From: Candidatus Latescibacterota bacterium
GTDB lineage: Bacteria > Latescibacterota > UBA2968 > GCA-2709665
Assembly (NCBI GenBank): GCA_965205485.1
Contig: OZ242180.1
Coordinates: 2,400,001-2,464,000, forward strand
Reading direction: 5' to 3'
Length of the DNA stretch: 64,000 nt
Shown here: positions 11,420 through 27,300 of the stretch, piece by piece
Layout: every line of letters begins with the position of its first letter
How positions within the stretch are numbered: position 1 is the first letter of the stretch
Position numbers and translations under genes: made by a program
The notes under the pieces: model-generated
The model's input: the letters and a program-made list of their open reading frames with translations, nothing else
Databases searched by the model: none
Told to the model about the DNA's origin: nothing

Positions 11420-12025
11420 TTACTGCAAATGACGCCGGACATATCCAATGCCATCGGCGAATTTCGTCAGCAGCAGGCAATCACGTGAACTCAGTTCAGT
11501 TTCGATATGCGGATTGGCGAAATCCCTGGAATTCCTGGTTATGAAACAGCATCGCTCCCGGGATTCTGCATTCAGATGGTCAAGAACGGAAGCATAAACA
11601 ATCGAATCTTGCGGGGAAAGGTTGAGCTTTTCTTGAAGACTTATCGCGGCGCTTATGACGTTTAATCCTACCGGTATCACTTCAACGGTCTGCAAAATTC
11701 CTTCCAGCGTTTCGTCCAGCCTGCGCTTTTCCTCTTCTCCGCTACGGATCAATATGCTGTTGAGTTCGTGGAAACGTTCGGATGCCGCTTCGTATGGACT
11801 TGAACGCGAGAGTTCTCGAATGGCCGTCGTGACGTCCTCGTGGATCTGTCGTCTTCGCTTCGTGCGGCGCACCCACGTTTCATAAGGCTCCCCAATGCTG
11901 AAGGCAGGCAAAACCAGGCTAATCTTACCAACTTCAGCGAGGCGCAAAAGTGCCGAGCACTCGTCATGCTCGGCCTGGAGAAAAGCAAGTTCAAGAACGA
12001 AATTTGACTCCAGATACACAATCAT
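11420..12025 (-). CDS. PIN-domain protein (DUF4935-like)
   Basis: N-terminal IVYLESNFV, LSPQDSIVYASV and FITRNSRDF acidic motifs typical of PIN folds. Confidence 0.75.
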   Translation of the reverse strand: MIVYLESNFVLELAFLQAEHDECSALLRLAEVGKISLVLPAFSIGEPYETWVRRTKRRRQIHEDVTTAIRELSRSSPYEAASERFHELNSILIRSGEEEKRRLDETLEGILQTVEVIPVGLNVISAAISLQEKLNLSPQDSIVYASVLDHLNAESRERCCFITRNSRDFANPHIETELSSRDCLLLTKFADGIGYVRRHLQ

Positions 12026-12474
12026 GTTGTTTCTTCGAGTTCTATCGAACCGTTTGAGATAGCTTCCGACAACCCCGAGTCAAAGAGCCACTGGGAATTT
12101 CCGTCTACCGAGCCATTACGCGAGTCAATATCAAGCAGATCTCCCAGCCAGGAAATCGTTATCAATTCGAGACCGTACCGGCTTAGAACATCAAGGGATA
12201 GGTCTGATTTGAGATATGGTGCGAAAATTTCATTAGCATCAATCTTGTAGTCAGGTTTTGCCAGATTATCTGCCGTAGATGCCGCCGTCCAAAGATAAAG
12301 GTAGTCGGGGAGGACAAGGAGGAAGTATGGAACCGGCGGCAAGAATGCATGGGCCAGCAGATTTCGCCGCATAAGTGTGGCCCACTCCGCAGAAGAGACA
12401 GGCGCCTTCTTGATTTCCACGACGAGTTGCAGGCTTCCATCCGCGCCGGACACCGCTATATCGACATTTTTCAT
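12022..12474 (-). CDS. Hypothetical protein with PD-(D/E)XK-like motif, coupled to the PIN gene
   Basis: VDIAV...LVVEIKK; stop codon overlaps the PIN start (ATGA). Confidence 0.55.
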   Translation of the reverse strand: MKNVDIAVSGADGSLQLVVEIKKAPVSSAEWATLMRRNLLAHAFLPPVPYFLLVLPDYLYLWTAASTADNLAKPDYKIDANEIFAPYLKSDLSLDVLSRYGLELITISWLGDLLDIDSRNGSVDGNSQWLFDSGLSEAISNGSIELEETT

Positions 12475-12813: not shown

Positions 12814-14862
12814 CTATCGAAGCGGTTGTTTCACTCGATTGAAGTCAACCTTGTACCGATCGAGGGCCTTGAGCGCCTTGTTCCGGGGATGGGGATATAC
12901 GTCGCGTGACTTTCTGAAGGACATGACGGCGGCGTTTGTCCGGCCCTGATTCTGAAGCAGCCTTCCCTTCTGATAGTACAGCTCGGCAAGCGTCTTCTTC
13001 TTCAACGCTTCATGCCTGAGCATCTCCGCCCTGGTCAACCACTTTCCCACCTGCTCCCAGTTCGAGCTGTTTCCGTTGTCCAGTACGACCGAGGCCATAC
13101 CCAGAAGGCTCGCGTAACTGCCGTGTGCGAGCCTGAACGGTTCCTGCAATTGCTCGAACACCGGGTCCCCGGTAAAATATGCCAATCCCAGATAGCGCCC
13201 GTAGTGGAACAGCATTTCGTTCCGGCGGACCCGCTCCCAGCGGTCGGTGGGTTTCCGGTTGATGAGCTGTACGAAGAATTCTTCGCCGCGAGGATGGCGC
13301 TTCAGCTTGATCGTCCCCGGTTTCCCGCCCCTTGCAGCTTCCATCAGGAAGCCGTAGACGCGTAACTCACGGTTGGGATAGATATCGACGTCCAGGGGCA
13401 AGAAGATCGCCCGTTCGTTCGAATCGATAAACCGTTCGAGTACCGCATCCCTCTTCTTTGTCGACATGAACGGGTTGAACAGGCGTTCGCCGTATACGAG
13501 ACCCTGCAGATTGTACAATGTGACATCCGGACGGCGGTTTTCGACGTATCGATAATAGCCGATCGGCCCGGTTGTATCTCCGAAGACGAACAGGACAGCG
13601 TCTTCCGGCAAGAGGTCCAGCTGCATTTCAGCATGCCGCTCGGCGAAGTCGTTTTCGGCCCTGTCGTTTGGCTTCCAGTGGGATTGGACTGACCACCAGA
13701 CCAGGCAGACCCCGGCGAGCACAGCAGCAGAGATTCCTACCTTCGGACCGTACGGCGTTTTGTCTGTGAATTTTCCCTTCAGCCAGTGGCAGACACACTG
13801 TAGTCCGATGCCCAGCCACAACGCCAGAAGACCGTAACACAATATCGAATACGGCCGGAAGACCGCGACCTGGAAATAGTCAAAATCGAAGCGCAGCAGG
13901 ACGATCAGCACAATGCTGTTTGTAAGGAAAACCAGCAATCCCGATACCGCAATATCGGTTTGGCGCTTGCGAAACAGGAGCATCAGGCCGAGCACCGACA
14001 GCGCGAATCCCGGTAACGTCAATTGCCAAAGGAATTCGTTTCCGAGCCACTGCATGAACCTGAACCGGTCATTCCATCCGGCGCTTGGGCTGATGTCGAC
14101 TTCGACATACCCCTGCCGGCTGAAGTAGAACCAGAACGCCTTCAGGGAATCGATCGAACCGTAGAAATTGATCAGAACGTCCTGGTGAGACCGCCAGACC
14201 ATCCAGGCATAGGGCAATACCGCGCAGCATGCGAGAACGGCGAGGAGCAGCGGAAGCTTCCTGTAGAGATTCCGCCGAACGGTAAAGGCCAGCACCGCGA
14301 GTCCGGGTGCTGACAGCACCGTGAGCGGCACGTGATTGGCCAGGCTAAATCCGTAAGCCGCGGCGGCGGCAATCCAGATGCCGGTGCGGTGAGGGTGACG
14401 GACGCCGTACAGCATCAGCGCGTAGATGCCAAAGAAAAACAGCGCATTGAGCGTGTAGACCTCGGTGACGACGGCCTGAGACCAGAAATGCTCTGAGGCG
14501 GCAAACAGCACGGAGGCTGTCAGGGCGGGAATGGGCGAGGCGCCGATCAGACGGATGCAAATGTAGACGCAGCCGCACGCGAGGGCGCCCAGCGTCGCGC
14601 TGGACAGATGGCCGAGGACGGCGACGCTGCCGAAGGGAAACTGCGTGAAGAGGTAGACGATCAGCGTAAAGAGAGGATATCCCGGCGGATGGGCGACACC
14701 CAGGTGCGCGCCGGCCATCAGGAACAACCCGTCGTCTTCCAACACGACGGTGCGAGGCATCGTCAGAACGTACAGAACCAGCGGCGCCAGGATAGAGGCA
14801 ACCAGAGCCGTGCCATCGCGAAACGGCTCGATCGATCCGCGCCTGGAGTGCGCGCGCATCAT
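12814..14862 (-). CDS. DUF2723 (TMEM260-like, GT-C fold) membrane glycosyltransferase with C-terminal TPR-like helices
   Basis: EDDGLF...GVAHPPGYPLF, FWSQAV.TEVYTL and LANH motifs; multiple TM helices. Confidence 0.8.
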   Translation of the reverse strand: MMRAHSRRGSIEPFRDGTALVASILAPLVLYVLTMPRTVVLEDDGLFLMAGAHLGVAHPPGYPLFTLIVYLFTQFPFGSVAVLGHLSSATLGALACGCVYICIRLIGASPIPALTASVLFAASEHFWSQAVVTEVYTLNALFFFGIYALMLYGVRHPHRTGIWIAAAAAYGFSLANHVPLTVLSAPGLAVLAFTVRRNLYRKLPLLLAVLACCAVLPYAWMVWRSHQDVLINFYGSIDSLKAFWFYFSRQGYVEVDISPSAGWNDRFRFMQWLGNEFLWQLTLPGFALSVLGLMLLFRKRQTDIAVSGLLVFLTNSIVLIVLLRFDFDYFQVAVFRPYSILCYGLLALWLGIGLQCVCHWLKGKFTDKTPYGPKVGISAAVLAGVCLVWWSVQSHWKPNDRAENDFAERHAEMQLDLLPEDAVLFVFGDTTGPIGYYRYVENRRPDVTLYNLQGLVYGERLFNPFMSTKKRDAVLERFIDSNERAIFLPLDVDIYPNRELRVYGFLMEAARGGKPGTIKLKRHPRGEEFFVQLINRKPTDRWERVRRNEMLFHYGRYLGLAYFTGDPVFEQLQEPFRLAHGSYASLLGMASVVLDNGNSSNWEQVGKWLTRAEMLRHEALKKKTLAELYYQKGRLLQNQGRTNAAVMSFRKSRDVYPHPRNKALKALDRYKVDFNRVKQPLR

Positions 14863-15422
14863 CCGGTACCGTCCTGCACGTTATCCCCAGCCTCGGGAGG
14901 GGCCTCGCGAAATGTCCAGAGAGAATTGACGGAATAGTTCAGCACACCGGCGGGGGCGATCGCACACCCCTGCAGGATTACCAGCGGCACATCCGCGAAC
15001 TGTACGGAAAGCAGGACGAACGTGCCGTAACTCAACATTAGCGACACGAGCGATACAAGATGATATTTCAACCCCCGAATCCGGCGCTTTCCTGGCAGCG
15101 AGCGACTCCCGAAGGTCCAGTAGTTGTTGAGCAGAAAATTGGAGACGATGGACAGCTCGATCGCAATCGGCGACGCCAGCAGCGCGTGTACGCCGAGATT
15201 GAGCATCAATTGAAACGAACCGAGATTCACAACCACGCCGCCAAGGCCCGTGAGCGCGAATTTTCCGAATGTCGGAGAAAGTAATTTTCCGAATAGACGC
15301 ATGGAATTCGATGGGATGCGGGTGGTGAACAGATACGGTACGGAACGCGCCTGAGAACCCTGGCGTTCGAAGAGATTCAACAAGCGTGCGTACCACGGCG
15401 TACGCAGCGATGGTGTCTCCAA
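14859..15422 (-). CDS. GtrA-family membrane protein
   Basis: KFALTG..G.VVN, SNFLLNNYWTF and NYSVNSLWTF motifs; true start may be downstream (ATG about 15302). Confidence 0.85.
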   Translation of the reverse strand: METPSLRTPWYARLLNLFERQGSQARSVPYLFTTRIPSNSMRLFGKLLSPTFGKFALTGLGGVVVNLGSFQLMLNLGVHALLASPIAIELSIVSNFLLNNYWTFGSRSLPGKRRIRGLKYHLVSLVSLMLSYGTFVLLSVQFADVPLVILQGCAIAPAGVLNYSVNSLWTFREAPPEAGDNVQDGTG

Positions 15423-15784: not shown

Positions 15785-15800
15785 TGGCACAATCCTTGCG
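15785..15800 (+). promoter_or_regulatory. Sigma54 (-24/-12) promoter upstream of the peptide precursor genes
   Basis: TGGCACAATCCTTGCG: GG-N10-GC spacing with TGGCAC and TTGC boxes. Confidence 0.7.
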
Positions 15801-15829
15801 AGTCCAATTCGTCGAAGGAGGCGCGATAC

Positions 15830-15931
15830 GTGCACGAGACGCGTGGCTCGATGTCTCCAATGATTCGCATCAAGAGCAGCGCCAAAGGGGGTGTGTCGAG
15901 ACCGCGAAATGACACGCATAACCCTTTGTAA
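15830..15931 (+). CDS. Possible 33-aa small ORF (MHETRGSMSPMIRIKSSAKGGVSRPRNDTHNPL)
   Basis: AAGGAGG 8 nt before GTG, directly after the sigma54 site; below the ORF-track size cutoff. Confidence 0.35.
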   Translation: MHETRGSMSPMIRIKSSAKGGVSRPRNDTHNPL

Positions 15932-16027
15932 ATCAAGACATTTTGGCGGCGCACATCAGCATACGGTTTATCAGGAAACGGCATCGTTTGGTTGTCGCCG
16001 GGATGTCTACGAAAGGAGGTGATTGAC

Positions 16028-16231
16028 ATGAAGAGACGCATTGCATCACGCCTTGTAGACACGTCCGGAATTCCGTCTCGGTTGCCCATCCGGACGGAGG
16101 ACCTGACTGACGGGCAGACGGCTCGCATCTCCGGTGGAGCCATACGCTGGCGGGCGATACTGAAAGATGTGTTCGGCATCGATCTGGGCACGAATTTGCC
16201 GGAAACAGGCGCGGCTGGTCCATTGCTGTAG
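16028..16231 (+). CDS. Double-glycine-leader peptide precursor 1 (67 aa)
   Basis: RBS GAAAGGAGGTGA; 37-aa leader ending EDLTDGQTARISGG; core AIRWRAILKDVFGIDLGTNLPETGAAGPLL. Confidence 0.8.
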   Translation: MKRRIASRLVDTSGIPSRLPIRTEDLTDGQTARISGGAIRWRAILKDVFGIDLGTNLPETGAAGPLL

Positions 16232-16315
16232 TATTCGAGTTGCATACCAACCAGGTATGTTGCCTGGAAAATCAAACAGGATGTCATACGGACACAATAG
16301 AAAGGAATTGACGAA

Positions 16316-16504
16316 ATGACGGACCAGATCCTTGCCACGTCAGCTCAGGCATCTGTGGCCTGCGCTCAACTCCCAGAACAAGAAATCGGCCTGGCACGTC
16401 GTGAGATGGTGAATACATCGGGGGGTCTTCTACCACCAATTCCGCTTCCTTTAGCCCGTCTGATTGCCGAGATCATCAAGGATTACCTTGACGACGGGGA
16501 TTGA
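16316..16504 (+). CDS. Double-glycine-leader peptide precursor 2 (62 aa)
   Basis: RBS AGAAAGGA; 37-aa leader ending IGLARREMVNTSGG; core LLPPIPLPLARLIAEIIKDYLDDGD. Confidence 0.75.
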   Translation: MTDQILATSAQASVACAQLPEQEIGLARREMVNTSGGLLPPIPLPLARLIAEIIKDYLDDGD

Positions 16505-16953
16505 AGTGGGGGCCAACAGGACGAAGTCTCTCCCATTCGCCGGCCTCCGCTGTTGTGAATTCGAACTGAATCTTCAACGACCTCGTTTTTCCAATCTGAT
16601 CTTCTCCAATAGCGAAGACGAAGCCGCAAGGGTCGTCAGCGATCTGAAAACTCAACGAGTTGTGGCGATTCTGGGGAGATCCGAAAACGGCTACTTTCTG
16701 CGCATCGTTGAAGCGGCCAGAAAAAACGTGCATTAATGGCAGAGCGGATTAGTTTTAGGTTTGGGGTGAGTTCTGTGGCCTGCCATCAACCTATCGGAGG
16801 TCTCGGTGCCTCCGGCGCGGTCGGAGATCGCGTAAACGGTTTAGCCGAAATTTTCAGATCCATAGCCGTCTCGTGTTGCCAGCGTTTCGGCGAAGCTACA
16901 AACACAACGGACGTTAACTTCGGGATAATCGACTGACTCTACAGGAGGTAATC

Positions 16954-17238
16954 ATGACTCATGCATTGGCGAATCCGATGGCGACTGATGGCGGTCTTAT
17001 GGTCGTAGACTGCAATCCGCTTCAGCGGCAGGAAGAAACGCTTAACAGCGGGCAAATGGGAGACACACAGGGCGGAATCTTGATTGGACCGGCCCTTTAC
17101 TTGATTGCAAAAGCCGCTGCACCCTATGTGGCGGGTGCTGTTACTGCAATCGTCGTTGGAGTGGTTCTCGCTGAGATTGCGCCGAACAACGGGTGCAATA
17201 GCTGTACGTGCAACACAAGGCCACCTGGACGCCGTTAG
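16954..17238 (+). CDS. Double-glycine-leader peptide precursor 3 (94 aa)
   Basis: RBS ACAGGAGGT; 41-aa leader ending ETLNSGQMGDTQGG; hydrophobic 53-aa core with a CNSCTC tail. Confidence 0.8.
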   Translation: MTHALANPMATDGGLMVVDCNPLQRQEETLNSGQMGDTQGGILIGPALYLIAKAAAPYVAGAVTAIVVGVVLAEIAPNNGCNSCTCNTRPPGRR

Positions 17239-17247
17239 GTTTCGTGC

Positions 17248-17282
17248 GTGGGATAGGAGCGATTTGTTCGCTCCTATCCCAC
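17248..17282. other. Perfect 15-bp hairpin after precursor 3
   Basis: GTGGGATAGGAGCGA-TTTGT-TCGCTCCTATCCCAC; no U-tract. Confidence 0.75.
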
Positions 17283-17315
17283 AAAGACCAATAGACACAA
17301 CACTGGAGGTCCCGG

Positions 17316-18128
17316 ATGAAGGACATCATCCACACACGATCGCGGAGGGGTTGGGTCTTCGCGGCCATATCGTACACGCTGTTTTCCGTTGTGCCTGCTC
17401 TGCTGATTCTCAGATACGTCATTCAAATCGATCTTGCGATCCTGACAGCGGTCCTGGCCAGTCAGGCAGTGTCGTTTATAATCTTCCGAAAAAAGCTCTA
17501 TGAAACTGCAGCGGTAATGATGAGCGCGGTCCGCGGATTACTTGAGTCGAGTCCCGGCGCTATTGAACCAGGCCAGGATTCTAACGTCACCGAAGTGATT
17601 CTTGAAAAACAAGAGATGTACAGTTTATACTTTTTGATGTTCTGGATTTCGGGAATGTCTGTCATCGGGGTAGATGCTTTGCTTCCGTGGGCAATAGAAC
17701 TGCGATTTCCTCTTGTTGATCTATGGAAATTGATTGGAGGATTAATCGCCTTGTATGTGATTCACGAAGCGCTTCACGGTCTCGCCGCGATGGCGTGGGG
17801 AAAAATTCCATTTAGTTCGCTGCACTTTGGAATCAACGTGCGATTAATGGCCTTTTACTGCCACGCTGACAAACCGATGACACTGAGCGCATACCGGGCA
17901 TTCGCGCTACTGCCGTTAATCGTAACAACACCTGCCGCGGTTTTAGTTCTGTCGTTTGATCCGGCGATCTGGTCGGTCTTGATACTATGTTCCACGTTTG
18001 CCGGGGGCGCGGGAGATGTGATGGTTTTTTTCAAGGCTCGCAGGTATGACAATGACAGTTGGATTCAGGATCATTTGTCAGAAGTGGGTTTCACAATGTT
18101 TCCCGCAGGGGAGACACCCGCACGCTAA
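17316..18128 (+). CDS. DUF3267-like putative zincin membrane metallopeptidase
   Basis: IHEALHG (HEXXH), AFYCH, LLPL, GAGD and IQDH motifs; several TM helices; GGAGG RBS. Confidence 0.8.
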   Translation: MKDIIHTRSRRGWVFAAISYTLFSVVPALLILRYVIQIDLAILTAVLASQAVSFIIFRKKLYETAAVMMSAVRGLLESSPGAIEPGQDSNVTEVILEKQEMYSLYFLMFWISGMSVIGVDALLPWAIELRFPLVDLWKLIGGLIALYVIHEALHGLAAMAWGKIPFSSLHFGINVRLMAFYCHADKPMTLSAYRAFALLPLIVTTPAAVLVLSFDPAIWSVLILCSTFAGGAGDVMVFFKARRYDNDSWIQDHLSEVGFTMFPAGETPAR

Positions 18129-18249
18129 GCGACCGTAAACGGAACCGCTACAAGGGTATCCGGCAGGCGCATTACAAGAACATGGATGACTTCCACGACG
18201 TTCGGTTAAGGTAGTTCCACCTAACATCCCGCCGGCATCTACAATCGAT

Positions 18250-18851
18250 ATGGATTCACAAGAGATCACCAACAGGGATTCCCACGAGGTCCTCACGATC
18301 CGGACAGGCGCGCTTGCGATGTTCCTGCTTTCGCTTGTGATGTTTTTTGTCGCGGTAAACGTGGCCCGTGTGGTGCACTCGGGCTTGTCCGGATGGAATA
18401 TTGACCTCCAGCCGGACAGTTTCAATCTGTGGGTGTTTCTGGGAAGTCTCGTCTTGCTGGTGGTTGTCCACGAAGCGTTGCATGCCCTGGCCGCATTGCT
18501 GTGGGAAAGGCGCATTTAAGTTCGATTCGTTTCGGGTACAATTTGAAATGGCTCATCGCCTACTGTCATTGCTCGAGCCTGATGAGGAAGCGCGCCTTTC
18601 GCAGATTCCTGCTGTTGCCCCTCGCGGTCACAGTGCCGTTTGCCGGTCTTTTCCTTCTGTTGTACCCGTTTTTGTGGACACTCCTGCTCTTCAGTTTGAG
18701 TTTTTCTGCATGTGCGGGGGATGTGTTGATTGATTTCAAGGTCCAGAATTTGCCCGCCGACCTGTGGGTTCAGGATCACCCTTCGGAAATCGGATGCTAT
18801 GTCTGGCCTGAAGGGCAATCTCCGCCAGGTGGTGGAGTGTATCGGGGGTAG
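18250..18851 (+). pseudogene. Second DUF3267-like peptidase, split by a 1-nt frameshift near 18503-18505
   Basis: VHEALHA in the 18250 frame ends at TAA 18517; AYCH, LLPL, CAGD and VQDH continue in the -1 frame; one extra G restores W-G-K as in the paralogue. Confidence 0.75.
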
Positions 18852-19045
18852 CGTTCACTGCGCTAGGACTGTGGTGGTTTGCCCGGGTTTCACAGACCGC
18901 GCAACGTGTTTCCGATGGCCAGGATCCGCTTGCGGATGCCGAGACCGATGCAGTTTAGGGCCTGATCGGTTGCTCTTGGCCGTGATCATAGTCGAATCGG
19001 ACAGGGGTTACTCAAGCCTGGCGTTTGGTCGATAATACGCAATGG

Positions 19046-19086
19046 AATACTAAATATAATATGTTTCAATACTAATTATAGTATGT
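19046..19086. promoter_or_regulatory. Tandem palindromic operator-like repeats upstream of the exporter operon
   Basis: AATACTAAATATAATATGT and AATACTAATTATAGTATGT: 17/19 identical, 22-bp period. Confidence 0.6.
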
Positions 19087-19276
19087 ATCGGCAAGTATTC
19101 GCGGACTTCGGGCGTGGCAAGCTAGAATTGAGCGGCTTGTTAAGGATTGCCCTTCGAGGCCGGAAAATCCCGGATCTCCGGCAGGAAGAACCCCTGGTAA
19201 CCGGCGAATCGCCCTCGGTCGGAAATCGATCTACATCCGGAAACGCCAATAATCCTTCCATTTCGGGAAAGGAACT

Positions 19277-22200
19277 ATGGACGTCTTTACCCACTTTTCT
19301 CAGGCGTCGAATCAAACGGAATCCGTACGGTTTCGCTTCGGAGAGATTGTAATTGTACAAGGGGCGCCTGGCGATGCGTTCTACATGCTAAAATCGGGCC
19401 GGCTGCGAGTAATCAAACGGAATACGGACGGCCAACCTGAAACCGTGGGATTTCTTTATGCCGGCGACCACTTTGGCGAGGGCGCGCTGTTGACGGGGCA
19501 GGGACATCGGGCGGTGGTGCGAGCCGCGGAGGATTCCGTGGTGCTGAAGGTGTCGCGGGATGAATTCCTCGATGTATTGAAGAAGGAGCCGGAGCTGGAG
19601 GCCTATCTGCAGGACCAGGTTGCGAATATCGCGTACCGGGACTTCACGAGGTATCTGAAGGGGTCCGTTTCCGGGGATGGCATGCGGGAGCTGTTCCAAC
19701 GTCTGAAGCGAGAGGAGGTCGCAGCGGGCGCGTCGTTCACGCAATCCGGTCACACGAGCGAGCGTTTCTGCGTGGTGGGCAGCGGCGGGTTGGACGTGAT
19801 GCTTGAGGACGGAAGCACGCACTCGCTCGACGCCGGGGATTTTTTCGAAGAGACGGATTCTACTGTCGGCGGCTCACGGACGATCCGCAGCCGGGTGAAT
19901 AGCGTTATCTACGTCTTGGAAAAGCCTGACCTGGAAAGCCTGAGTCAATCAATCCTTGCATTAACGCCCTTGAGAGAGATGGCACGGCGATTGTACAAGG
20001 AACCGGCACCGGACAGGTCGATGTCCCGCGAGATTCAATCGGGCGGAATTCACGTCCACACGGAAACGGCGGCGGTGAACAACGCCGTTGCGGCGAACGG
20101 CGGGCCATACGATGTCCCGAATTCCAGGACATCTGACGAGCAGCGCAGAACATCGACGGCGTTTCGTTTTCCGTTTCTGAAACAACACGATCAGTCCGAC
20201 TGCGGGGCGGCGTGTCTGGGGATGATCTGCAAGTATTTCAGGATGCCGATCGGGTTGAACCGGCTGCGGGACATGTGCAACGTGTCGCGGGACGGCACGT
20301 CGATGGCGGCATTGGCAGAAGCGGCGGAGACGCTTGGATTTGTCACGCGGGGCGTGCGCACCGGCTACGAAGCGTTGATGCGAACGGAATTGCCGGCCAT
20401 TCTGCACTGGGAAGGCAACCATTTCGTTGTCCTGTATGAGATCAACAAGAAGGGTGTGAAAATCGCGGATCCGGGCGTGGGTATTCGCAGATTGGCCCGG
20501 AGGGAGTTCGAGAAGAGCTGGACCAACATGGCGTTGCTCCTTGAATACACGGATCAAGTGGCGGAGAATGAACCCTCCAGATCTTCCTTCAAGCGTTTTT
20601 TCCCGTTGATCAAGCCCTATACGGCCATTCTGGTCGAGGTCCTGCTGGCGTCCCTGGTACTCAGCCTGTTGGGCCTTGCCTCGCCGGTTTTTACGCAAAC
20701 TATAGTCGACCAGGTGCTGGTGCATCACGACGAGGACCTTCTGAACCTGATGCTCGCGGGTATGGTCGTCGTGGCGCTCTTCCAGATGGGGACATCGACG
20801 CTGCGCGCGTATCTGATCGGATATATCAGCGCCAGGTTGAGCCTCACGATGTTGTCGCGGTTCTACCGCCATCTGCTGGGCCTGTCCATGCGGTTCTTTG
20901 CGTTGCGCCGCACCGGCGATCTGACCACGCGATTCAAGGAAAACGCGACGATCCAGCGGCTCTTCACCGACACGACCATTTCGGCGATCCTCGATTTTAT
21001 CATGTTGTTCGTCTATCTTGGGCTGATGTTCTACTACAATTGGGAGTTGACGCTCGTGATGTTGATTTTCGTGCCGCTCTCGGTAGGGCTCACGCTGATC
21101 TATACCCCGATCCTGAAGTCCTTCAGCCAGCGGGCATTTCTCGCTCGCGCCGAACAGTCCTCCGTACTGATCGATTCGCTGCACGGAATCGACGTTGTGA
21201 AAGCCGAAGCGGTCGAACGGGTAACGAGATGGCAGTGGGAGGGCAAATTTACAAGGGAAATCCAGATCGGATTCCGACGATTGAAAATGGAGATGCTGTT
21301 CGGCGCAGGCGGTAGTATGATCAATCTCCTGAGTTCCACGGTGATTCTGTGGTATGGCGCCTCTCTGGTTATCGACGGTGAGTTGTCAGTCGGTCAATTG
21401 ATGGCTTTCAATGCCCTTATCGGCAACGTGATGGGACCCATAATGGGATTGATCGGCGTGTGGCCCGAGGTTCAGGAAGCCCGGGTCGCCCTGGACAGGC
21501 TGAATGACGTCTATGACTCTAAGATGGAAAGTGCGCGCCAGCGCGGACACGGCCTGAGACTGAAGCAGGTTGAAGGCCGTCTGATTTTCGAAAACGTGTT
21601 CTTCAGGTACGGCGTTGGAACCGATGAACCCTACGTCTTGAACAACATCGACCTGGAACTGAAGCCTGGACGAAAGGTCGCCATCGTCGGCCGCAGCGGC
21701 GCCGGAAAAACCACGCTCGTCAAGCTCGTGCCCCGCCTGTTCGATCCCACGGAAGGGCGCGTGCTGCTGGACGGGATGGATATGCGCGATTTCGACCCTC
21801 ACTGGCTGCGCCGCCAGGTGGGCATGGTTATGCAGGACTCTTTTCTATTCAGCGGAACCATTGCGGAGAACATCGCGGTCGGAGAACCGGACGCGAATAT
21901 GGACCGCCTCCTGGAAGTCGCGAAATTGGCATGCGTTCACGACTTCGTAAACGAGATGCCCCTGGGATACGAGACGAAGGTGGGCGAACAGGGAATCGGA
22001 TTGTCCGGCGGCCAGCGGCAACGTGTTGCGATCGCGCGCGCGCTGTACCGCGATCCGGGAATACTGATCTTCGACGAAGCGACAAATGCGCTGGATACGG
22101 ACTCGGAGGCTGCGATCCAGACCAATCTGGCGCTGTTCCTGGAAAATCGCACGTCCCTGGTCATCGCCCATCGCCTGAGCACGGTGAGGGATGCGGACAC

Positions 22201-22312
22201 GATTCTCGTAATGGAAAAGGGCCACATTCTCGACACCGGCACGCACGAAGAACTGATGCTTCGACGGGGTCTTTACTATCACATGTGCAGCCAGCAGTTG
22301 CAGCTGACCTGA
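19277..22312 (+). CDS. Peptidase-containing ABC transporter (2x cNMP-binding, C39 peptidase, ABC TMD, NBD)
   Basis: QGAPGDAFY...GDHFGE cNMP domain plus a second degenerate one; QHDQSDCGAAC, HWEGNHFVV and IADP (C39 catalytic residues); GRSGAGKT, LSGGQRQR, FDEAT, IAHRL. Confidence 0.95.
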   Translation: MDVFTHFSQASNQTESVRFRFGEIVIVQGAPGDAFYMLKSGRLRVIKRNTDGQPETVGFLYAGDHFGEGALLTGQGHRAVVRAAEDSVVLKVSRDEFLDVLKKEPELEAYLQDQVANIAYRDFTRYLKGSVSGDGMRELFQRLKREEVAAGASFTQSGHTSERFCVVGSGGLDVMLEDGSTHSLDAGDFFEETDSTVGGSRTIRSRVNSVIYVLEKPDLESLSQSILALTPLREMARRLYKEPAPDRSMSREIQSGGIHVHTETAAVNNAVAANGGPYDVPNSRTSDEQRRTSTAFRFPFLKQHDQSDCGAACLGMICKYFRMPIGLNRLRDMCNVSRDGTSMAALAEAAETLGFVTRGVRTGYEALMRTELPAILHWEGNHFVVLYEINKKGVKIADPGVGIRRLARREFEKSWTNMALLLEYTDQVAENEPSRSSFKRFFPLIKPYTAILVEVLLASLVLSLLGLASPVFTQTIVDQVLVHHDEDLLNLMLAGMVVVALFQMGTSTLRAYLIGYISARLSLTMLSRFYRHLLGLSMRFFALRRTGDLTTRFKENATIQRLFTDTTISAILDFIMLFVYLGLMFYYNWELTLVMLIFVPLSVGLTLIYTPILKSFSQRAFLARAEQSSVLIDSLHGIDVVKAEAVERVTRWQWEGKFTREIQIGFRRLKMEMLFGAGGSMINLLSSTVILWYGASLVIDGELSVGQLMAFNALIGNVMGPIMGLIGVWPEVQEARVALDRLNDVYDSKMESARQRGHGLRLKQVEGRLIFENVFFRYGVGTDEPYVLNNIDLELKPGRKVAIVGRSGAGKTTLVKLVPRLFDPTEGRVLLDGMDMRDFDPHWLRRQVGMVMQDSFLFSGTIAENIAVGEPDANMDRLLEVAKLACVHDFVNEMPLGYETKVGEQGIGLSGGQRQRVAIARALYRDPGILIFDEATNALDTDSEAAIQTNLALFLENRTSLVIAHRLSTVRDADTILVMEKGHILDTGTHEELMLRRGLYYHMCSQQLQLT

Positions 22313-22339
22313 ACTTTCGGCTGACGAGGAGCCGGTCGG

Positions 22340-23743
22340 ATGGCGGAACCGCGACAATTGGCGTCTTCGGGAGCGTCGTCGCCGATGCATCTGCCCGCGC
22401 GGGAGCAGGTTTCGGAGGAGATGCAGGCGTTTTTCGGGTCGCTGAGGCCGTTCTGGGGGCGGGCGCTGCTCTACGTCGTTCTTCTGTTTGTCGGGATCGC
22501 GGTGTTCTGGGCATGGCGGGGCAAGGTGGACGTTGTGGCTTCGGCGCCGTTTCAACTGGTGCCGATGGGGAAGGTGAAGACGTTGCAGGCGCGCCGCGGC
22601 GGCGAGATCGAGCACATCGGCGTCAGCGAGGGCGATCGCATCGAAGAGGGGCAGTTGCTGTTCAAGCTGAAGTCTTGGGAAACCTGGGGAGACCTTCGAG
22701 AGCTGGAACAGGCGGAAATGGCGTATCAACAGGCCGGATACGACTTCAAACAGGTATTGCCCCGGAGATCGGAATTGAACCTGGAGACGATCGCGTCGCT
22801 CGAAAAGCGACTGGCCGTTCTGCAGCGGTTCATGGCGGCGCATCAGAACGCCCTCAGGGACTACCACGACGACGCGGGTGATGCCGAAGGATCCGGAAGT
22901 GACAATTCCGAGGCGGAACTGCAGGCACAGATCGGCTTCAGGCAGGCGGAAATCGATCACTTGAAGCAGGACTATCTTCAGCAGAAGGCATTGTTCCAGA
23001 GGAAACTGATCAGCCGGGTGGATATCAATCAGGCGCGTGTACGGTACCTGAGCGCACTCGCAGCGCTTCCGGGACGCATGTCGGAAATATACAGGAACGA
23101 AACGGCCGTCCAGGACCTCAAACGTCAGATTCTGGAGGCGCGAATCGAGCACGGCCGCGAGGCGTCAAAGATGAAACACGCGTACGAAACCGCGCGATTG
23201 AGACTGGAGCAGGCGCGCAAACGCGTCGACCGCCGGCTGGAAGCGGAGTCGGACCTCATATTGGCGCCGGAATCCGGCATTGTAACGCGGGTGGAGGTGA
23301 ATGCGCTCGGACAGGTTATCAGCAAAGGGCAGGCGCTGGTTTCAGTAGCGCCGGCGTCCGCTCCGATCGTCGCCGAGCTTACGGTATTGAACAGGGACGT
23401 GGGCATGCTGAAACCGGGTCAGATCGTGAAGCTGAAATACGACGCCTTCGCATTCCAGGATTTCGGAATCAAACGCGGGTGGCTCAAACAGATCTCGCCG
23501 GATGCCGTCATCGATGAGATTGTCGGACCGGTTTTCAGGGGTGTCGTTGAATTGGAAGAAACCACCGTGGACGTAAAGGGACAGGAGAAACCGCTCCGGT
23601 TCGGCATGAAGGGCACCGCGGAGATCATGACGGACCGCCAATCCGTCCTGCTGATGCTTCTGAGTCCTCTGCGAAGGCTTTACGAGTCAGCATCGTACGA
23701 CGCCGTAAAGTCGGCGGCAGCTCAGCCGGAGGATTCGTTATGA
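22340..23743 (+). CDS. HlyD-family membrane fusion protein
   Basis: Single TM helix, GGEIEHIGVSEGDRI lipoyl half-motif, coiled coil, APESGIV, KYDAFAFQDFG, LRFGM. Confidence 0.92.
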   Translation: MAEPRQLASSGASSPMHLPAREQVSEEMQAFFGSLRPFWGRALLYVVLLFVGIAVFWAWRGKVDVVASAPFQLVPMGKVKTLQARRGGEIEHIGVSEGDRIEEGQLLFKLKSWETWGDLRELEQAEMAYQQAGYDFKQVLPRRSELNLETIASLEKRLAVLQRFMAAHQNALRDYHDDAGDAEGSGSDNSEAELQAQIGFRQAEIDHLKQDYLQQKALFQRKLISRVDINQARVRYLSALAALPGRMSEIYRNETAVQDLKRQILEARIEHGREASKMKHAYETARLRLEQARKRVDRRLEAESDLILAPESGIVTRVEVNALGQVISKGQALVSVAPASAPIVAELTVLNRDVGMLKPGQIVKLKYDAFAFQDFGIKRGWLKQISPDAVIDEIVGPVFRGVVELEETTVDVKGQEKPLRFGMKGTAEIMTDRQSVLLMLLSPLRRLYESASYDAVKSAAAQPEDSL

Positions 23744-24555
23744 CTCCTCGCGCGGAAGATGGGAACCCGATTCCTTCCCGGGAAATCACGCTCGTCCAGG
23801 TCAATGGCGCCGGTGTGTCGCTGAGTCAGGTCGTCCGTCAACTGGGGGTCGTCGACAAACTCGATTTCTTCGGTGAATTCGCGCGCAGAGAACTCGTGCG
23901 CCAGCTTGCGGTCCGGGAAGGCATCCGTTCAAAACCGGAAGACATCCAGCGCGACGTGGACGACTGGCGCTATCGACATCGCCTGGAACGTGTTGAAGAC
24001 ACGGAAGCGTGGCTCCGGTCCCGAGGCATTACCCTCGGCGACGTCGCAGAAGACGCTCAGGCGAAACGGTTGGAGCGTGCGTTGTCCGACAAGGTCGTGG
24101 ACAGAAGGATCCAACCGTACTTCGCTCAGCACAAGCTGGATTTCGACGAGGCGGAAGTCAGCTGGATTTTTCACCGTAATAGAGGCGTGATAGAAGAAAT
24201 CGGGCTTCAGGCCATAGAAGAAGGCGCTGATTTTTGCAGAATGGCCCGCGAGTACTCACAAGATGAACGCACGCGTCCGTCCGGCGGGTTTGTCGGGCGC
24301 GTTCGACGCGGACAGTTGCCGAAGGGTATTGCGGCGCGCCTCTTCGCCGCCGAACCTGGTGAAGTTTTCGGACCCGAAAAGGCATCGGGCGGCTTCGCGT
24401 TGTATATGCTGCAGCGGAACTTTCCGGCAGTCCTTGATGATAGCGTTTCAAATGAGATTCGCGATACGCTATTCAGTCAGTGGCTGCAGAGTGAGTTTCA
24501 GCGGGCGGAAATACACTACCCGATCTGGGAAACCGCGAAGGCGGTCCAGGAGTAG
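23740..24555 (+). CDS. PpiC/parvulin-type peptidyl-prolyl isomerase-like protein
   Basis: DFCRMAREYSQD.RTRPSGGFVG rotamase motif; ATGA overlap with hlyD. Confidence 0.8.
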   Translation: MTPRAEDGNPIPSREITLVQVNGAGVSLSQVVRQLGVVDKLDFFGEFARRELVRQLAVREGIRSKPEDIQRDVDDWRYRHRLERVEDTEAWLRSRGITLGDVAEDAQAKRLERALSDKVVDRRIQPYFAQHKLDFDEAEVSWIFHRNRGVIEEIGLQAIEEGADFCRMAREYSQDERTRPSGGFVGRVRRGQLPKGIAARLFAAEPGEVFGPEKASGGFALYMLQRNFPAVLDDSVSNEIRDTLFSQWLQSEFQRAEIHYPIWETAKAVQE

Positions 24556-24741
24556 GCGGGAGACGTGGCACGGTGACGGGTCCCTTCGCCGATGGCGACC
24601 GTTCAGTCGTTGAGGCGCGAACATCATATCCCCATGTCGTTTCGTTGCATCAGGCCGTTGATTCAGTATTTCGACGTGGGCTGCGTAAGCATCTACGCCG
24701 ATTTCAGATCGACCCGTTTCTGCAGAAATGCAAATTAGCCC

Positions 24742-24770
24742 TTGTCATTCACAAGAGCGGAAACTATATT
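24742..24770 (+). promoter_or_regulatory. Sigma70-type promoter in front of a structured non-coding region
   Basis: TTGTCA-17 nt-TATATT. Confidence 0.6.
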
Positions 24771-24775
24771 CCGGT

Positions 24776-25000
24776 TGTCACCACTCGGGCAGTGCCCGTA
24801 TGTCGGGTAGCCTACCGAATACAATAGCCGACATTCAGGGGCAAGGGTAGCTCCCTTGTCCCCGGCGAATACGTAGGACCTTCCCGCATCCTAAAAGCTG
24901 CGTGAGTGGTGACACTGCCCGGCACCCTTTAATCGGGGTGCCGCTAAGATGCTCATCACTGAACGGCGGGGGATGAAGCGGGATTTTTTTATGCCCTTCG
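24776..25000 (+). ncRNA. Candidate structured ncRNA, family not recognised
   Basis: 11-bp closing stem 24776-86/24904-14, three internal hairpins, possible pseudoknot, further hairpin 24920-43 and T7 tract; no credible ORF. Confidence 0.45.
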
Positions 25001-25332
25001 CTGTTGGTCCTCCTCAACATCCATCGCGTGTCAACGTCTTCCGTTGCAGTGCCAAGCCGCTGACTTTGTCGTAAGACGCCTACAACATTGGGTCGGCGCC
25101 AGGCGTTGCAGAATGCGCCATACGATGCAAAATGCATCACATGTTAACGCGCGCGTTCCAGCTACGCAAAAAAAGCACGCAGACACGGGTTTCATCTCAC
25201 GTCCGCGCCGGCGTACCGGTATTTTCCTTGAAGCGTCGAGACGCAAATCGCTACACGTCCGCTTCTCTTCAAAGCGCCTCACCATTTTAGCCAAATGCTT
25301 TATATACTTTAAGTTATTCGCTTATTCAAATC

Positions 25333-25348
25333 TGGCTCGCATTTTGCA
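25333..25348 (+). promoter_or_regulatory. Sigma54 (-24/-12) promoter upstream of the CPBP genes
   Basis: TGGCTCGCATTTTGCA: GG-N10-GC, one mismatch to TGGCACG-N4-TTGCW; AT-rich tract upstream. Confidence 0.6.
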
Positions 25349-25506
25349 TATCGACCTGGATTGTTCGACACCCAAACAGGACACCGAATGCGACCGCGGC
25401 AAGAGGACTGCCGGAGTTGCGGGCTCGATGAAATCCGCCGCTCGCGCCGGAATGCGGGGTCGTTGGATCCACTTTCGTCCGGTCGCATCAATAGGGGAGG
25501 GAATAA

Positions 25507-26361
25507 ATGGCGTATCCGAATCTGAAGCAGTCCGTCTGGCTGATGGTCTTGCTTGTGGTGGCAACGAGCGCGCTGGGGATGATGCTTCATTTCCTCGGCG
25601 CCGCGTCGGACAATGAAACACGAATCTTCGAATACCTGGGATGGATTCTAAACCTTCCCGTTTTCGCTCTACTCGTGTTATATGCGCAGCGTCGATCCGG
25701 TCGGCCCTGGTCGGACGTCCTGCTCTTAAGGACAGTACCGTGGAAAATGTACCTCCCACTTACTGTCTCGATCCTGGGATTCGGCATTGTCATATCCGAC
25801 CTTGCAACCTTCGTGCAATATCTGATTCCAATTCCCAAAGTATACCTCGAGATATTCCTTGATCTAATGGGGAGCAAAACACCTCTTGGTCTCGCGTTTT
25901 ATGTTCTCGCGATTCACGCGCCGCTTACCGAGGAAGTTCTCTGCAGAGGCGTTATTCTTGGCGGGCTGTTAGCCAACGGTACCCGCCGGCGTGCTATTTT
26001 TTGGTCTGCAGTGCTGTTCGCCGCGATGCATATGAATCCATGGCAGTTTCCAGGATCCTTGATACTGGGTCTTGTATTCGCGTGGTGGGTCGTACAGACA
26101 GGTTCTTTGCTGCCTGCGTTATTCGGTCACGCTCTGAACAATTTTCTGTCGTTGATTTCGGTGCGTATGGAGATATTCCGTCCTATCGAGGATTGGGGTG
26201 TTGTGGAGTTTCTGCCATGGTGGCTGCTTGTGTGCGGTATTGTACTGGCTGCGGTCGGTCTGCGGTGGTTCAATCAAATGGCAAAACGCGAAGGGACGCC
26301 GCTGGCTCCACCGGCTGAACCGGAGCCGGTCGTAACGGCGGTGGCCGAGAAATCAGTCTGA
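25507..26361 (+). CDS. CPBP (Abi/CAAX type II) intramembrane metalloprotease, copy 1
   Basis: EEVLCRG, FAAMH and HALNN motifs; GGAGG RBS. Confidence 0.92.
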   Translation: MAYPNLKQSVWLMVLLVVATSALGMMLHFLGAASDNETRIFEYLGWILNLPVFALLVLYAQRRSGRPWSDVLLLRTVPWKMYLPLTVSILGFGIVISDLATFVQYLIPIPKVYLEIFLDLMGSKTPLGLAFYVLAIHAPLTEEVLCRGVILGGLLANGTRRRAIFWSAVLFAAMHMNPWQFPGSLILGLVFAWWVVQTGSLLPALFGHALNNFLSLISVRMEIFRPIEDWGVVEFLPWWLLVCGIVLAAVGLRWFNQMAKREGTPLAPPAEPEPVVTAVAEKSV

Positions 26362-26445
26362 CGGCGCAACACGCGGGGCGACACTCGACTTGGGTCCGGA
26401 TTGTTCGACTTGCCGGCATCTCCTCACCCAAACAGGAGGGAATAC

Positions 26446-27300
26446 ATGGCGTATCCGAATCTGAAGCAGTCGGTCTGGCTGCTGATCTTGTTTTTCCTGA
26501 TAAGCGCGGCACTGGGTGTACCGGTTGCCATCCTGGGTTTCATCCTGGACCAGACTTTGCACGGGAGTCCGTACGTAATCTGGCTATTAACGCTCATCAG
26601 TTTCGTTCTGGTGGCTGCTTACTCGAAGCGCCGAACAGATCGGACCTGGCGAAATATCCTGCAATTCAGGCCCGTATCCTGGCAACTGTCCCTGCCGCTC
26701 GGGGTGTCAATCATCGGCCTGGCAATCGTCGGTTCAGACCTGGGAAACCTCATGCGACATCTGATACCGGCACCTGAAATAATCGTCAACGCATTGAAGG
26801 AGCTGGCGGACAAGGAAAGTCCCTTTGGGCTGTCTTTTTATGTCATGGTGGTTCAGGCTCCCCTGACTGAGGAAATCCTCTTCAGAGGCATCATTCTCGG
26901 CGGCCTGCTGACCCACCGAACGCGGAACCGGGCGATCGTCTGGTCCGCGGTCATGTTTGCGCTGTTTCATGCGAACCCGTGGCAATTCCCGATCGCCCTG
27001 ATATTGGGGATCGTATTCGCGTGGTGGGTTGTTCAAACCGGGTCCCTGGTACCGGCGATTGCAGGGCATGCGCTGAACAATTTTCTGGCATTGACGGTTG
27101 CGCATCTGGAATTATTCGGACCGATTGATAGTCCCGATACGGTGGTGTACTATCCGTGGTGGTTGCTTGCCGGCGGTATCGTCCTGGCTGCGGTCGGCTT
27201 GCGGTGGTTCAATCAGATGGCAAAACGCGAAAGTTCATCGCTCGAAAACCGCGTTCAACCGGAGCAGGCCGATGCGCCTGATAACCGGGAACCGGTCTGA
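26446..27300 (+). CDS. CPBP (Abi/CAAX type II) intramembrane metalloprotease, copy 2
   Basis: EEILFRG, FALFH and HALNN motifs; same N-terminus MAYPNLKQSVWL as copy 1; AGGAGG RBS before ATG 26446. Confidence 0.92.
   Translation: MAYPNLKQSVWLLILFFLISAALGVPVAILGFILDQTLHGSPYVIWLLTLISFVLVAAYSKRRTDRTWRNILQFRPVSWQLSLPLGVSIIGLAIVGSDLGNLMRHLIPAPEIIVNALKELADKESPFGLSFYVMVVQAPLTEEILFRGIILGGLLTHRTRNRAIVWSAVMFALFHANPWQFPIALILGIVFAWWVVQTGSLVPAIAGHALNNFLALTVAHLELFGPIDSPDTVVYYPWWLLAGGIVLAAVGLRWFNQMAKRESSSLENRVQPEQADAPDNREPV

Follow-up and report, generated by a model that had tools for sequence, protein, structure and literature searches.

We analysed a window of 64,000 nucleotides (nt) from the genome of a Candidatus Latescibacterota bacterium (contig OZ242180.1, positions 2,400,001 to 2,464,000), in which genes for small peptides, an exporter and several membrane proteases form a cluster at positions 15785-27300 (G000:C1:2,415,785-2,427,300 of the host genome G000, a single contig of 5.13 Mb). 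This cluster is a real, conserved and undescribed variant of double-glycine peptide export systems. All parts listed in a preliminary description of the sequence were found in their places, every one on the + strand. Eleven related records carry the taxon labels Candidatus Latescibacterota (seven), Gemmatimonadota (three) and uncultured bacterium (one). A relative of the stretch is present in one run labelled "sponge metagenome", and sponge-associated Latescibacterota have been described, with antiSMASH clusters of an unspecified "RiPP-like" type among them (PMC12993501).

Components of the locus

The genes of the cluster and the promoter site in front of them are as follows (window coordinates; aa, amino acids; TM, transmembrane):

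15785..15800, +: sigma54 (-24/-12) promoter site of the precursor genes, perfect consensus TGGCAC-N5-TTGC
16028..16231, +: precursor P1 (slot A), 67 aa; 37-aa leader to the double glycine (GG), 30-aa amphipathic core of net charge 0
16316..16504, +: precursor P2 (slot B), 62 aa; 37-aa leader to GG, 25-aa amphipathic acidic core of net charge -3
16954..17238, +: precursor P3 (terminal and most variable slot), 94 aa; 41-aa leader to GG, 53-aa core
17316..18128, +: long DUF3267 protease, 270 aa, six TM segments; two-helix N-terminus and a site-2-like HExxH...D domain
18250..18851, +: short DUF3267 gene, a pseudogene of about 200 aa in two frames, with a frameshift near 18502-18510
19277..22312, +: PCAT exporter, 1011 aa; two cNMP-binding domains, C39 peptidase, ABC membrane and ATPase domains
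22340..23743, +: HlyD-family periplasmic adaptor, 467 aa
23740..24555, +: parvulin/SurA-PrsA-like protein, 271 aa, without signal or TM segment
25507..26361, +: CPBP (Abi/Rce1-like) intramembrane protease 1, 284 aa; PF02517
26446..27300, +: CPBP intramembrane protease 2, 284 aa; 55% identity to CPBP 1

Ribosome-binding sites precede all three precursor open reading frames (ORFs). The ratio of nonsynonymous to synonymous substitution rates (dN/dS) is 0.29-0.33 for the leaders of the three slots and 0.13 for cores compared within a type, far under the 0.97 of a non-coding control, and we therefore regard P1-P3 as real genes. The P2 core belongs to a class of 15 cores, and the P3 core has one predicted TM helix followed by a basic, Cys-bearing tail (net charge +3). 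The earlier expectation that annotators might miss such small genes was not borne out: all three are called in public collections, where two relatives carry the name "hypothetical protein". A further ORF at 16736-16936 was rejected as a fourth precursor; it has no leader match, and no counterpart in any of 40 related loci.

The leaders belong to a family of 37-41-residue double-glycine leaders, of which 131 out of 141 end in GG, GL or GA. A profile built from 67 leaders and run on 41 genomes found the family in 35 of them, including all 34 that bear the exporter; six of the seven exporter-less genomes are without it, and in the host genome P1-P3 are the only three matches. Searched against 1.84 billion representatives, the same profile retrieved 99 proteins, 87 of which look like members by length and repeat filter, and the family amounts to about 87 clusters at 50% identity. 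It matched none of the NHLP, Nif11 and HetP models, and none of 33 precursors scanned rose above any Pfam or NCBIfam bacteriocin cut-off. The nearest match was that of a glycine-zipper core from another genus to Bacteriocin_IIc (E 2.6e-5, 24.5 bits, cut-off 27.1). In the literature, searched by title and start of abstract and with subscription journals largely outside its scope, we found neither a description of the leader family nor a report joining DUF3267 to PCAT.

In the exporter, Gln, Cys, His and Asp of the C39 peptidase are all present alongside the cNMP-binding and ABC domains, which identifies it as a PCAT protein. The Gln-x3-[ST]DC motif recurs in 54 of 55 exporters, and the exporter itself in 34 of the 41 genomes searched. 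PF00027 matches the exporter twice; the first phosphate-binding cassette keeps GE and an Arg and deviates from the consensus. The third gene of the exporter block had been described as a peptidyl-prolyl isomerase. The active site of parvulins contains two conserved histidines. The protein aligns to PrsA and SurA, with Trp and Ala in place of this pair, a replacement that is also found in the consensus of 59 homologues; with both histidines replaced, the role of a chaperone is more likely for it than that of an isomerase, and it probably acts in the cytoplasm without catalysis. This rotamase gene occurs in 41 of 168 genomes of the phylum, 40 of which fall in two families.

No TolC gene lies in the locus, as noted before, and eight genes of the family are encoded elsewhere in the genome. 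Genes for modifying enzymes were likewise not found: a genome-wide search found no YcaO, radical SAM and ATP-grasp genes are absent from the locus (where alone they were sought), as is any TmcBC- or DsbA-like gene, and a genome search for LanC gave no match, its control being silent as well. The evidence supports a system that exports unmodified double-glycine peptides, in which the C39 exporter is catalytically complete and the small precursors are genuine.

Four membrane metalloprotease genes had been proposed; three are intact and one is a pseudogene. The first gene matches PF11667 (E 1e-15), and H150, E151, H154 and D234 are invariant across 30 rows of its alignment; with the HExxH motif, the distal Asp and the membrane fold, it belongs to the DUF3267/site-2 protease clan. 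In its structural model (pLDDT 82.8), an N-terminal hairpin precedes the protease domain. The best structural match is SpoIVFB (Z 6.6, root-mean-square deviation 2.5 over 104 residues), which the tool's own note rates as weak, followed by further weak matches to RseP (Z 5.9) and mjS2P (Z 5.4); Foldseek returned nothing significant with this model. The EExxxR, FxxxH and HxxxN motifs are intact in both CPBP proteins.

The second DUF3267 gene is present, as described, and frameshifted, although it is intact in three related species (L022, L024, L025). The place of the frameshift is covered at a depth of 20-30 in three runs without the extra base, two of these runs coming from one sample that is possibly the window's own source, and the relative in a fourth run has the base. 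An assembly slip is ruled out by the three runs. A programmed -1 frameshift was also rejected: the GGGAAAG run is out of canonical phase for the upstream frame, and the relatives are in frame. By type, the broken gene is a short DUF3267, and the precursor class that normally accompanies this group does not occur in the window.

Related loci also encode a stand-alone two-helix membrane protein family of about 90 aa, for which no significant Pfam or Atlas match was found. Its profile matches the N-terminus of two long DUF3267 proteins of another genus (E 5e-12 and 1e-11). It gave no direct match to the window's own DUF3267 protein; compared profile to profile (hhalign) with the N-terminal parts of nine long DUF3267 proteins from the host genus, the family gave 82% and E 1e-5. 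On the strength of these two comparisons, the long DUF3267 protein appears to be a two-helix module fused to a site-2-like protease. In three genomes, two-helix genes lie far from any precursor, one of them beside a CPBP gene.

Variable cores and their partner genes

In loci of the same genus, the cluster always lies between GtrA and DegT-family genes. Conservation of the flanking TMEM260-like, GtrA and DegT genes is limited to the host genus, and we treat these flanks as an insertion site. The exporter block is constant, and the number of precursors (two to four), DUF3267 genes (none to three), CPBP genes (one to five) and two-helix genes varies. Slot A holds one of two alternative core types, with four changes on the exporter tree, all forced by well-supported branches; the terminal slot shows seven changes, against a shuffled mean of 7.4. 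Core classes are thus scattered over the exporter tree rather than following it.

The class of the terminal core is coupled to the gene behind it. Taking the last precursor of each run, 77 loci, from which overlapping duplicates of one genome had been dropped beforehand, yielded 64 rows; the next gene on the same strand was scored as partner, and classes were shuffled 5000 times within lineage groups. Omission of 18 unclassified rows left 46, and in 41 of these the next gene is the one expected from the terminal class (shuffles: mean 18.2, maximum 25), with core classes drawn after the table had been seen and kin among the rows not independent; within the genus, this holds for 16 of 16 (shuffled mean 8.4). 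Because of linkage, post hoc classes and kinship, the count shows cassette integrity, not function.

Partners are of four types, namely short DUF3267, long DUF3267, CPBP and two-helix proteins, and some cores have none. All 11 rows with "ADG" cores, from three genera, have a short DUF3267 gene next, and all four rows with cores of the window's P3 type a long DUF3267 gene. Other Cys-tail or NTRV cores precede CPBP in six of seven rows, the seventh having a split CPBP gene. WDW glycine-zipper cores precede the two-helix protein in seven of eight rows; in the eighth, the gene caller had missed one. Acidic GSL cores stand directly before the exporter in all 12 of their rows (scored as 11 PCAT and one HlyD), and NPR cores precede CPBP in two of four. 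Three core classes hold the same partner type across two families.

Partner genes also occur without their class. Long DUF3267 is intact in seven loci without the P3 class. Three close pairs of these orphans give dN/dS values of 0.28, 0.28 and 0.37, and a fourth pair one of 0.70, which suggests that unpaired partner genes persist under purifying selection. One long DUF3267 gene of an orphan locus has a dS of 0.35 between two species whose exporters show a dS of 1.0, a difference that points to gene exchange.

One species (L102/L103, G014) keeps four precursors and partner genes at the orthologous locus and has lost the exporter from it. There, an insertion of about 10 kb, which includes an AbiJ-domain gene, stands in place of PCAT and HlyD, and the rotamase gene is only partial.

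Predicted function and known relatives

The locus has the layout of class II (unmodified) bacteriocins, with a GG leader, a small core and no modifying enzymes in the cluster. The explanation to which we give about even credence is a polymorphic, unmodified class II bacteriocin and immunity locus that uses intramembrane proteases as immunity. Sigma54, with an activator encoded elsewhere, would drive the precursor genes from the conserved site. The C39 domain, whose motifs are present, would cut the precursors after the double glycine, as in the PCAT family, and the cores would leave through PCAT-HlyD and a TolC protein encoded elsewhere; the parvulin-like protein would probably act in the cytoplasm as a chaperone of cargo or exporter. 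P3, with its TM helix and basic Cys tail, would enter the membranes of kindred cells, with P1 and P2 as possible partners or signals. The gene after the terminal precursor would be the cognate protector, here the long DUF3267 protease, predicted to bind the peptide once it sits in the membrane and to cleave it. The remaining DUF3267, CPBP and two-helix genes would form an array against the peptide types of neighbours, gained, swapped and lost over time. On this view, the membrane protein that accompanies each peptide type most likely protects the producer in competition among close relatives. A more specific form of the explanation, which we regard as possible rather than probable, is that sponge-associated Latescibacterota possess a polymorphic peptide-antagonism system with enzymatic, modular immunity, in which each class of membrane-inserting peptides is met by a cognate intramembrane protease of one of two unrelated clans (site-2-like DUF3267 or CPBP) or by a two-helix recognition module, acting alone or fused to the protease as a substrate selector.

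Immunity is favoured because the leader already has its own peptidase, orphan partners persist, two-helix genes occur far from precursors, one long DUF3267 gene points to exchange between species, an export-less species exists, and the gene broken in the window is of a type whose precursor class is missing there. The bacteriocin explanation as a whole draws on the scatter of core classes over the exporter tree, the purifying selection on cores within a class, the class-partner count and the resemblance of relatives' glycine-zipper cores to Bacteriocin_IIc, below its cut-off. Weak support comes from a predicted complex of long DUF3267, Zn and the P3 core, which scored 0.59 against 0.00 for the best control, with runs agreeing in at least 65% of contacts and a partner pLDDT of at least 65; among solved complexes at 0.60 or under, only 18 of 157 passed, as did both passing mismatches, and the score would fit immunity and maturation alike. 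Several points weigh against this explanation. Killing, immunity and cleavage are predicted roles. The 18 omitted rows, the late drawing of the classes and the kinship of the loci all reduce the weight of the class-partner count, and adjacency of class and partner is also expected from plain linkage. One large class, that of the 12 rows directly before the exporter, has no partner gene, which implies that those peptides need no protector, and the orphan long DUF3267 proteins could act on the slot A and B peptides that all these loci carry. P1-P3 match none of the bacteriocin family models, and 114 of 141 cores are net acidic. Class II bacteriocins are mostly not acidic. The controls of the complex prediction were unrelated proteins rather than non-cognate family members. 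Finally, the one DUF3267 protein characterised so far acts in maturation rather than in immunity (PMC13712780).

This last point leads to a TMcin-like maturation, in which DUF3267, with a fused or separate two-helix escort, and CPBP make a second, in-membrane cut, so that the partners are biosynthetic and not protective. The TMcin leader is taken off by the DUF3267 protein TmcP, which depends on a two-helix escort, TmcE, and six-helix DUF3267 proteins carry a fused escort (PMC13712780), much as the two-helix family occurs alone and fused here; moreover, cores with a TM helix are those then followed by DUF3267. Against this stand the dedicated C39 peptidase for the leader, with its catalytic motif in nearly all exporters, the purifying selection on partner genes without a cognate precursor, the two-helix protein standing alone after all eight glycine-zipper cores, and the position of the fused module, N-terminal here and C-terminal in the TMcin paper. 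We consider maturation unlikely. We hold it rather unlikely, too, that the peptides are non-toxic, serving as kin or density signals or as surface or matrix components like EbfG1-4, while the membrane proteases turn over or relay signals. The acidity of most cores would suit such a role, as would some long, acidic, low-complexity cargo and the GT4 gene directly upstream of the precursors in 32 of 44 other-genus loci (a further point against a bacteriocin); polymorphism is also typical of signal-receptor pairs, and the cyanobacterial GG/C39 system PteB-EbfG serves biofilm formation (PMC4997328). Within the genus, however, no receptor kinase or regulator gene accompanies the core classes, TM cores with a glycine zipper resemble class II bacteriocins, and arrays of orphan partners, like the scattered two-helix/CPBP cassettes, are more what one expects of immunity.

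The preliminary description had named a large RTX-type substrate among the findings that would overturn its reading. That the exporter serves such a protein, or another distant substrate, with small ORFs and proteases as bystanders, is very improbable. The HlyB model (TIGR01846) is the exporter's best NCBIfam match, at 640 bits and below the cut-off of 725, but the catalytic Cys, which HlyB/RTX exporters lack, is present together with His and Asp, and the leader family tracks the exporter among genomes, with its only matches in the host at this locus.

The polymorphic bacteriocin and immunity locus that we prefer has relatives among known systems. Its overall architecture had not been recognised before, yet the trio of long-type C39 ABC protein with N-terminal CAP_ED, HlyD and rotamase/SurA is that of cyanobacterial groups I, II and VI (Wang et al, 2011; PMC3140520), a likeness by gene content. 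Those clusters also hold several GG precursors, and in group II M16 peptidases, as some paralogous loci do here. They belong to another phylum and have an unrelated leader family, and the available text mentions neither a partner array of DUF3267, CPBP or two-helix proteins nor any coupling of class and partner. The exporter trio is thus already described and ordinary; what is new are the swappable cores, the class-specific intramembrane proteases and the shared two-helix module.

Pneumococcal blp (PMC3171984) shares a conserved PCAT and a variable block of GG precursors with partner genes, and its "cheaters" lose export and keep the rest, as L102/L103 do. Here, by contrast, the host is diderm, with HlyD and with TolC in trans, sigma54 sites take the place of the BlpC/BlpHR circuit, cNMP domains, a parvulin-like gene, DUF3267 partners and mostly acidic cores are added, and the variation is between species. 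The TMcin of Staphylococcus aureus (PMC13712780) has the same DUF3267 site-2-like protease beside a TM-helix precursor, with a two-helix membrane protein alone or fused to it. Its operon (TmcA/B/C/E/P) has no PCAT or GG leader, using TmcP for leader removal, TmcBC for export and DsbA, whereas a C39 exporter with GG leaders, an N-terminal fused module and DUF3267 genes variable in number and partly orphaned are found here. In Synechococcus elongatus, PteB and EbfG1-4 (PMC4997328) likewise comprise several small GG proteins and a C39 transporter with an essential Cys, without modifying enzymes; EbfG peptides promote biofilm, and no polymorphic partner array is described in the available text. 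Abi/CPBP self-immunity was shown in lactic acid bacteria (Kjos et al, 2010, via PMC10059821); CPBP genes with intact motifs lie downstream of GG precursors here too, in two to five copies per locus beside DUF3267 and two-helix genes.

For testing how intramembrane proteases recognise TM peptides, and whether they can serve as immunity, this lineage provides dozens of natural pairs of precursor and partner that have been swapped among species. If the modular immunity outlined above is true, DUF3267 would have a second role, opposite to that in TMcin, and its fusion to the two-helix module would be a case of specificity-module shuffling. The leader family is a source of candidate antimicrobial or signalling peptides, and the locus a possible concrete mechanism for competition among co-habiting symbiont species. 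For work on the role of the cNMP domains and rotamase gene in such exporters, it also provides a cargo that is genetically simple.

Promoters, structured RNA and neighbouring genes

The remaining features of the cluster are non-coding:

17248..17282, +: perfect 15-bp hairpin 3' of the precursors, without U-tract
19046..19089, strand not assigned: AT-rich palindrome upstream of the exporter, two 22-bp copies 22 nt apart
24776..24990, +: structured non-coding RNA; core at 24776-24914, followed by a hairpin and by a U-rich end resembling a terminator
25333..25348, +: second sigma54-like site, upstream of the two CPBP genes

The first sigma54 site is one of 16 perfect sites in 5.1 Mb and lies 242-246 nt upstream of the first precursor in 14 of 14 same-genus loci; rpoN and 14 matches to sigma54 activators are encoded elsewhere in the genome. 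The second site, also proposed earlier, is present and kept in 10 of the 14 loci, with an imperfect sequence. The hairpin behind the precursors, like ones in L021, L049 and L050, is a probable mRNA-stabilising or attenuating element.

What had been described as operator repeats are the copies of the palindrome, which is kept in 13 of the 14 loci in one to three copies and is a candidate operator. It also precedes about eight unrelated genes. Control by the SOS response was rejected, as none of the top 60 genome sites lies near lexA or recA. High-scoring copies elsewhere in the genome, some paired, stand before unrelated genes (G000:C1:43441, 744897/744950, 1082408, 1766050, 1785512/1785533) and would form a small regulon of one regulator.

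The structured RNA is real (folding z -4.4), although not a dedicated part of the system as had been supposed. In an alignment of 29 of 30 loci (L079 left out), from which the structure itself was derived, 98% of cells are paired and two-sided changes occur at 16 of 31 pairs, more than in all 500 shuffles and all slid controls. Of 41 genomes, 27 carry the RNA, up to seven times each and often before unrelated genes, and for this reason it is not specific to the system; at the position seen here it is present in 13 of 14 same-genus loci and in none of 26 other related loci, and we treat it as a resident of the locus rather than a defining part. The family is order-wide (L075-L090), often follows a promoter-like AT-rich stretch, and elsewhere precedes unrelated lipoprotein or membrane genes. 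No tRNA, tmRNA or curated RNA family was found to account for it. It resembles sRNA-Xcc1 (RF02221) in the AAUACAAUA..CCGA / GGCGAAUA internal motif and the CACCCUUU end, with longer insertions and an added outer stem, and scores 27.6 bits against that model (two homologues 29.7 and 26.1; gathering score 53). A C4-type antisense leader of antirepressor genes was rejected, as the genes downstream of its homologues looked unrelated on reading, without a family scan.

In three loci (L027, L028, L029), the last 23-24 codons of the exporter are repeated after the structured RNA, a trace of recombination at its 3' end. A distant cNMP-PCAT/HlyD/rotamase block in another family (L121, G054) stands behind an asparagine-synthase-like gene; it lacks the leader family, and its catalytic motif was not matched by the pattern used. 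Among paralogous exporter loci (L057, L059, L060, L118-L120, L131-L135, L137), some contain an M16 peptidase pair with very acidic GG-leader proteins of 150-210 aa that bear a related leader, and others a TPR protein after Gly/Ser-rich cargo. The upstream GT4 gene of other genera (L037-L058, L109-L129, L146) is usually accompanied by a GT4-GT28 fusion gene, a pattern that includes paralogous loci of one genome, and the peptides of these loci may be glycosylated; for G000 glycosylation was rejected, the GT4 pair having only partial matches of 24-34% there. Cores in L049, L050 and L117 end in up to seven Cys in a row with flanking acidic residues, within tandem precursor-precursor-CPBP modules.

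To the left of the cluster, divergent TMEM260-like glycosyltransferase and GtrA genes occupy window positions 12814-15422 on the - strand, with a pair of PIN-domain genes further left at 11420-12474. No RNA run is listed as containing the stretch. About 15-22 kb before the window, the genome encodes an NHLP-type export cassette (HlyD-like, C39 ABC and second ABC proteins; G000:C1:2378101-2385017); the 104-aa ORF behind it resembles a precursor of NHLP/proteusin type, with a His-rich core at its end.

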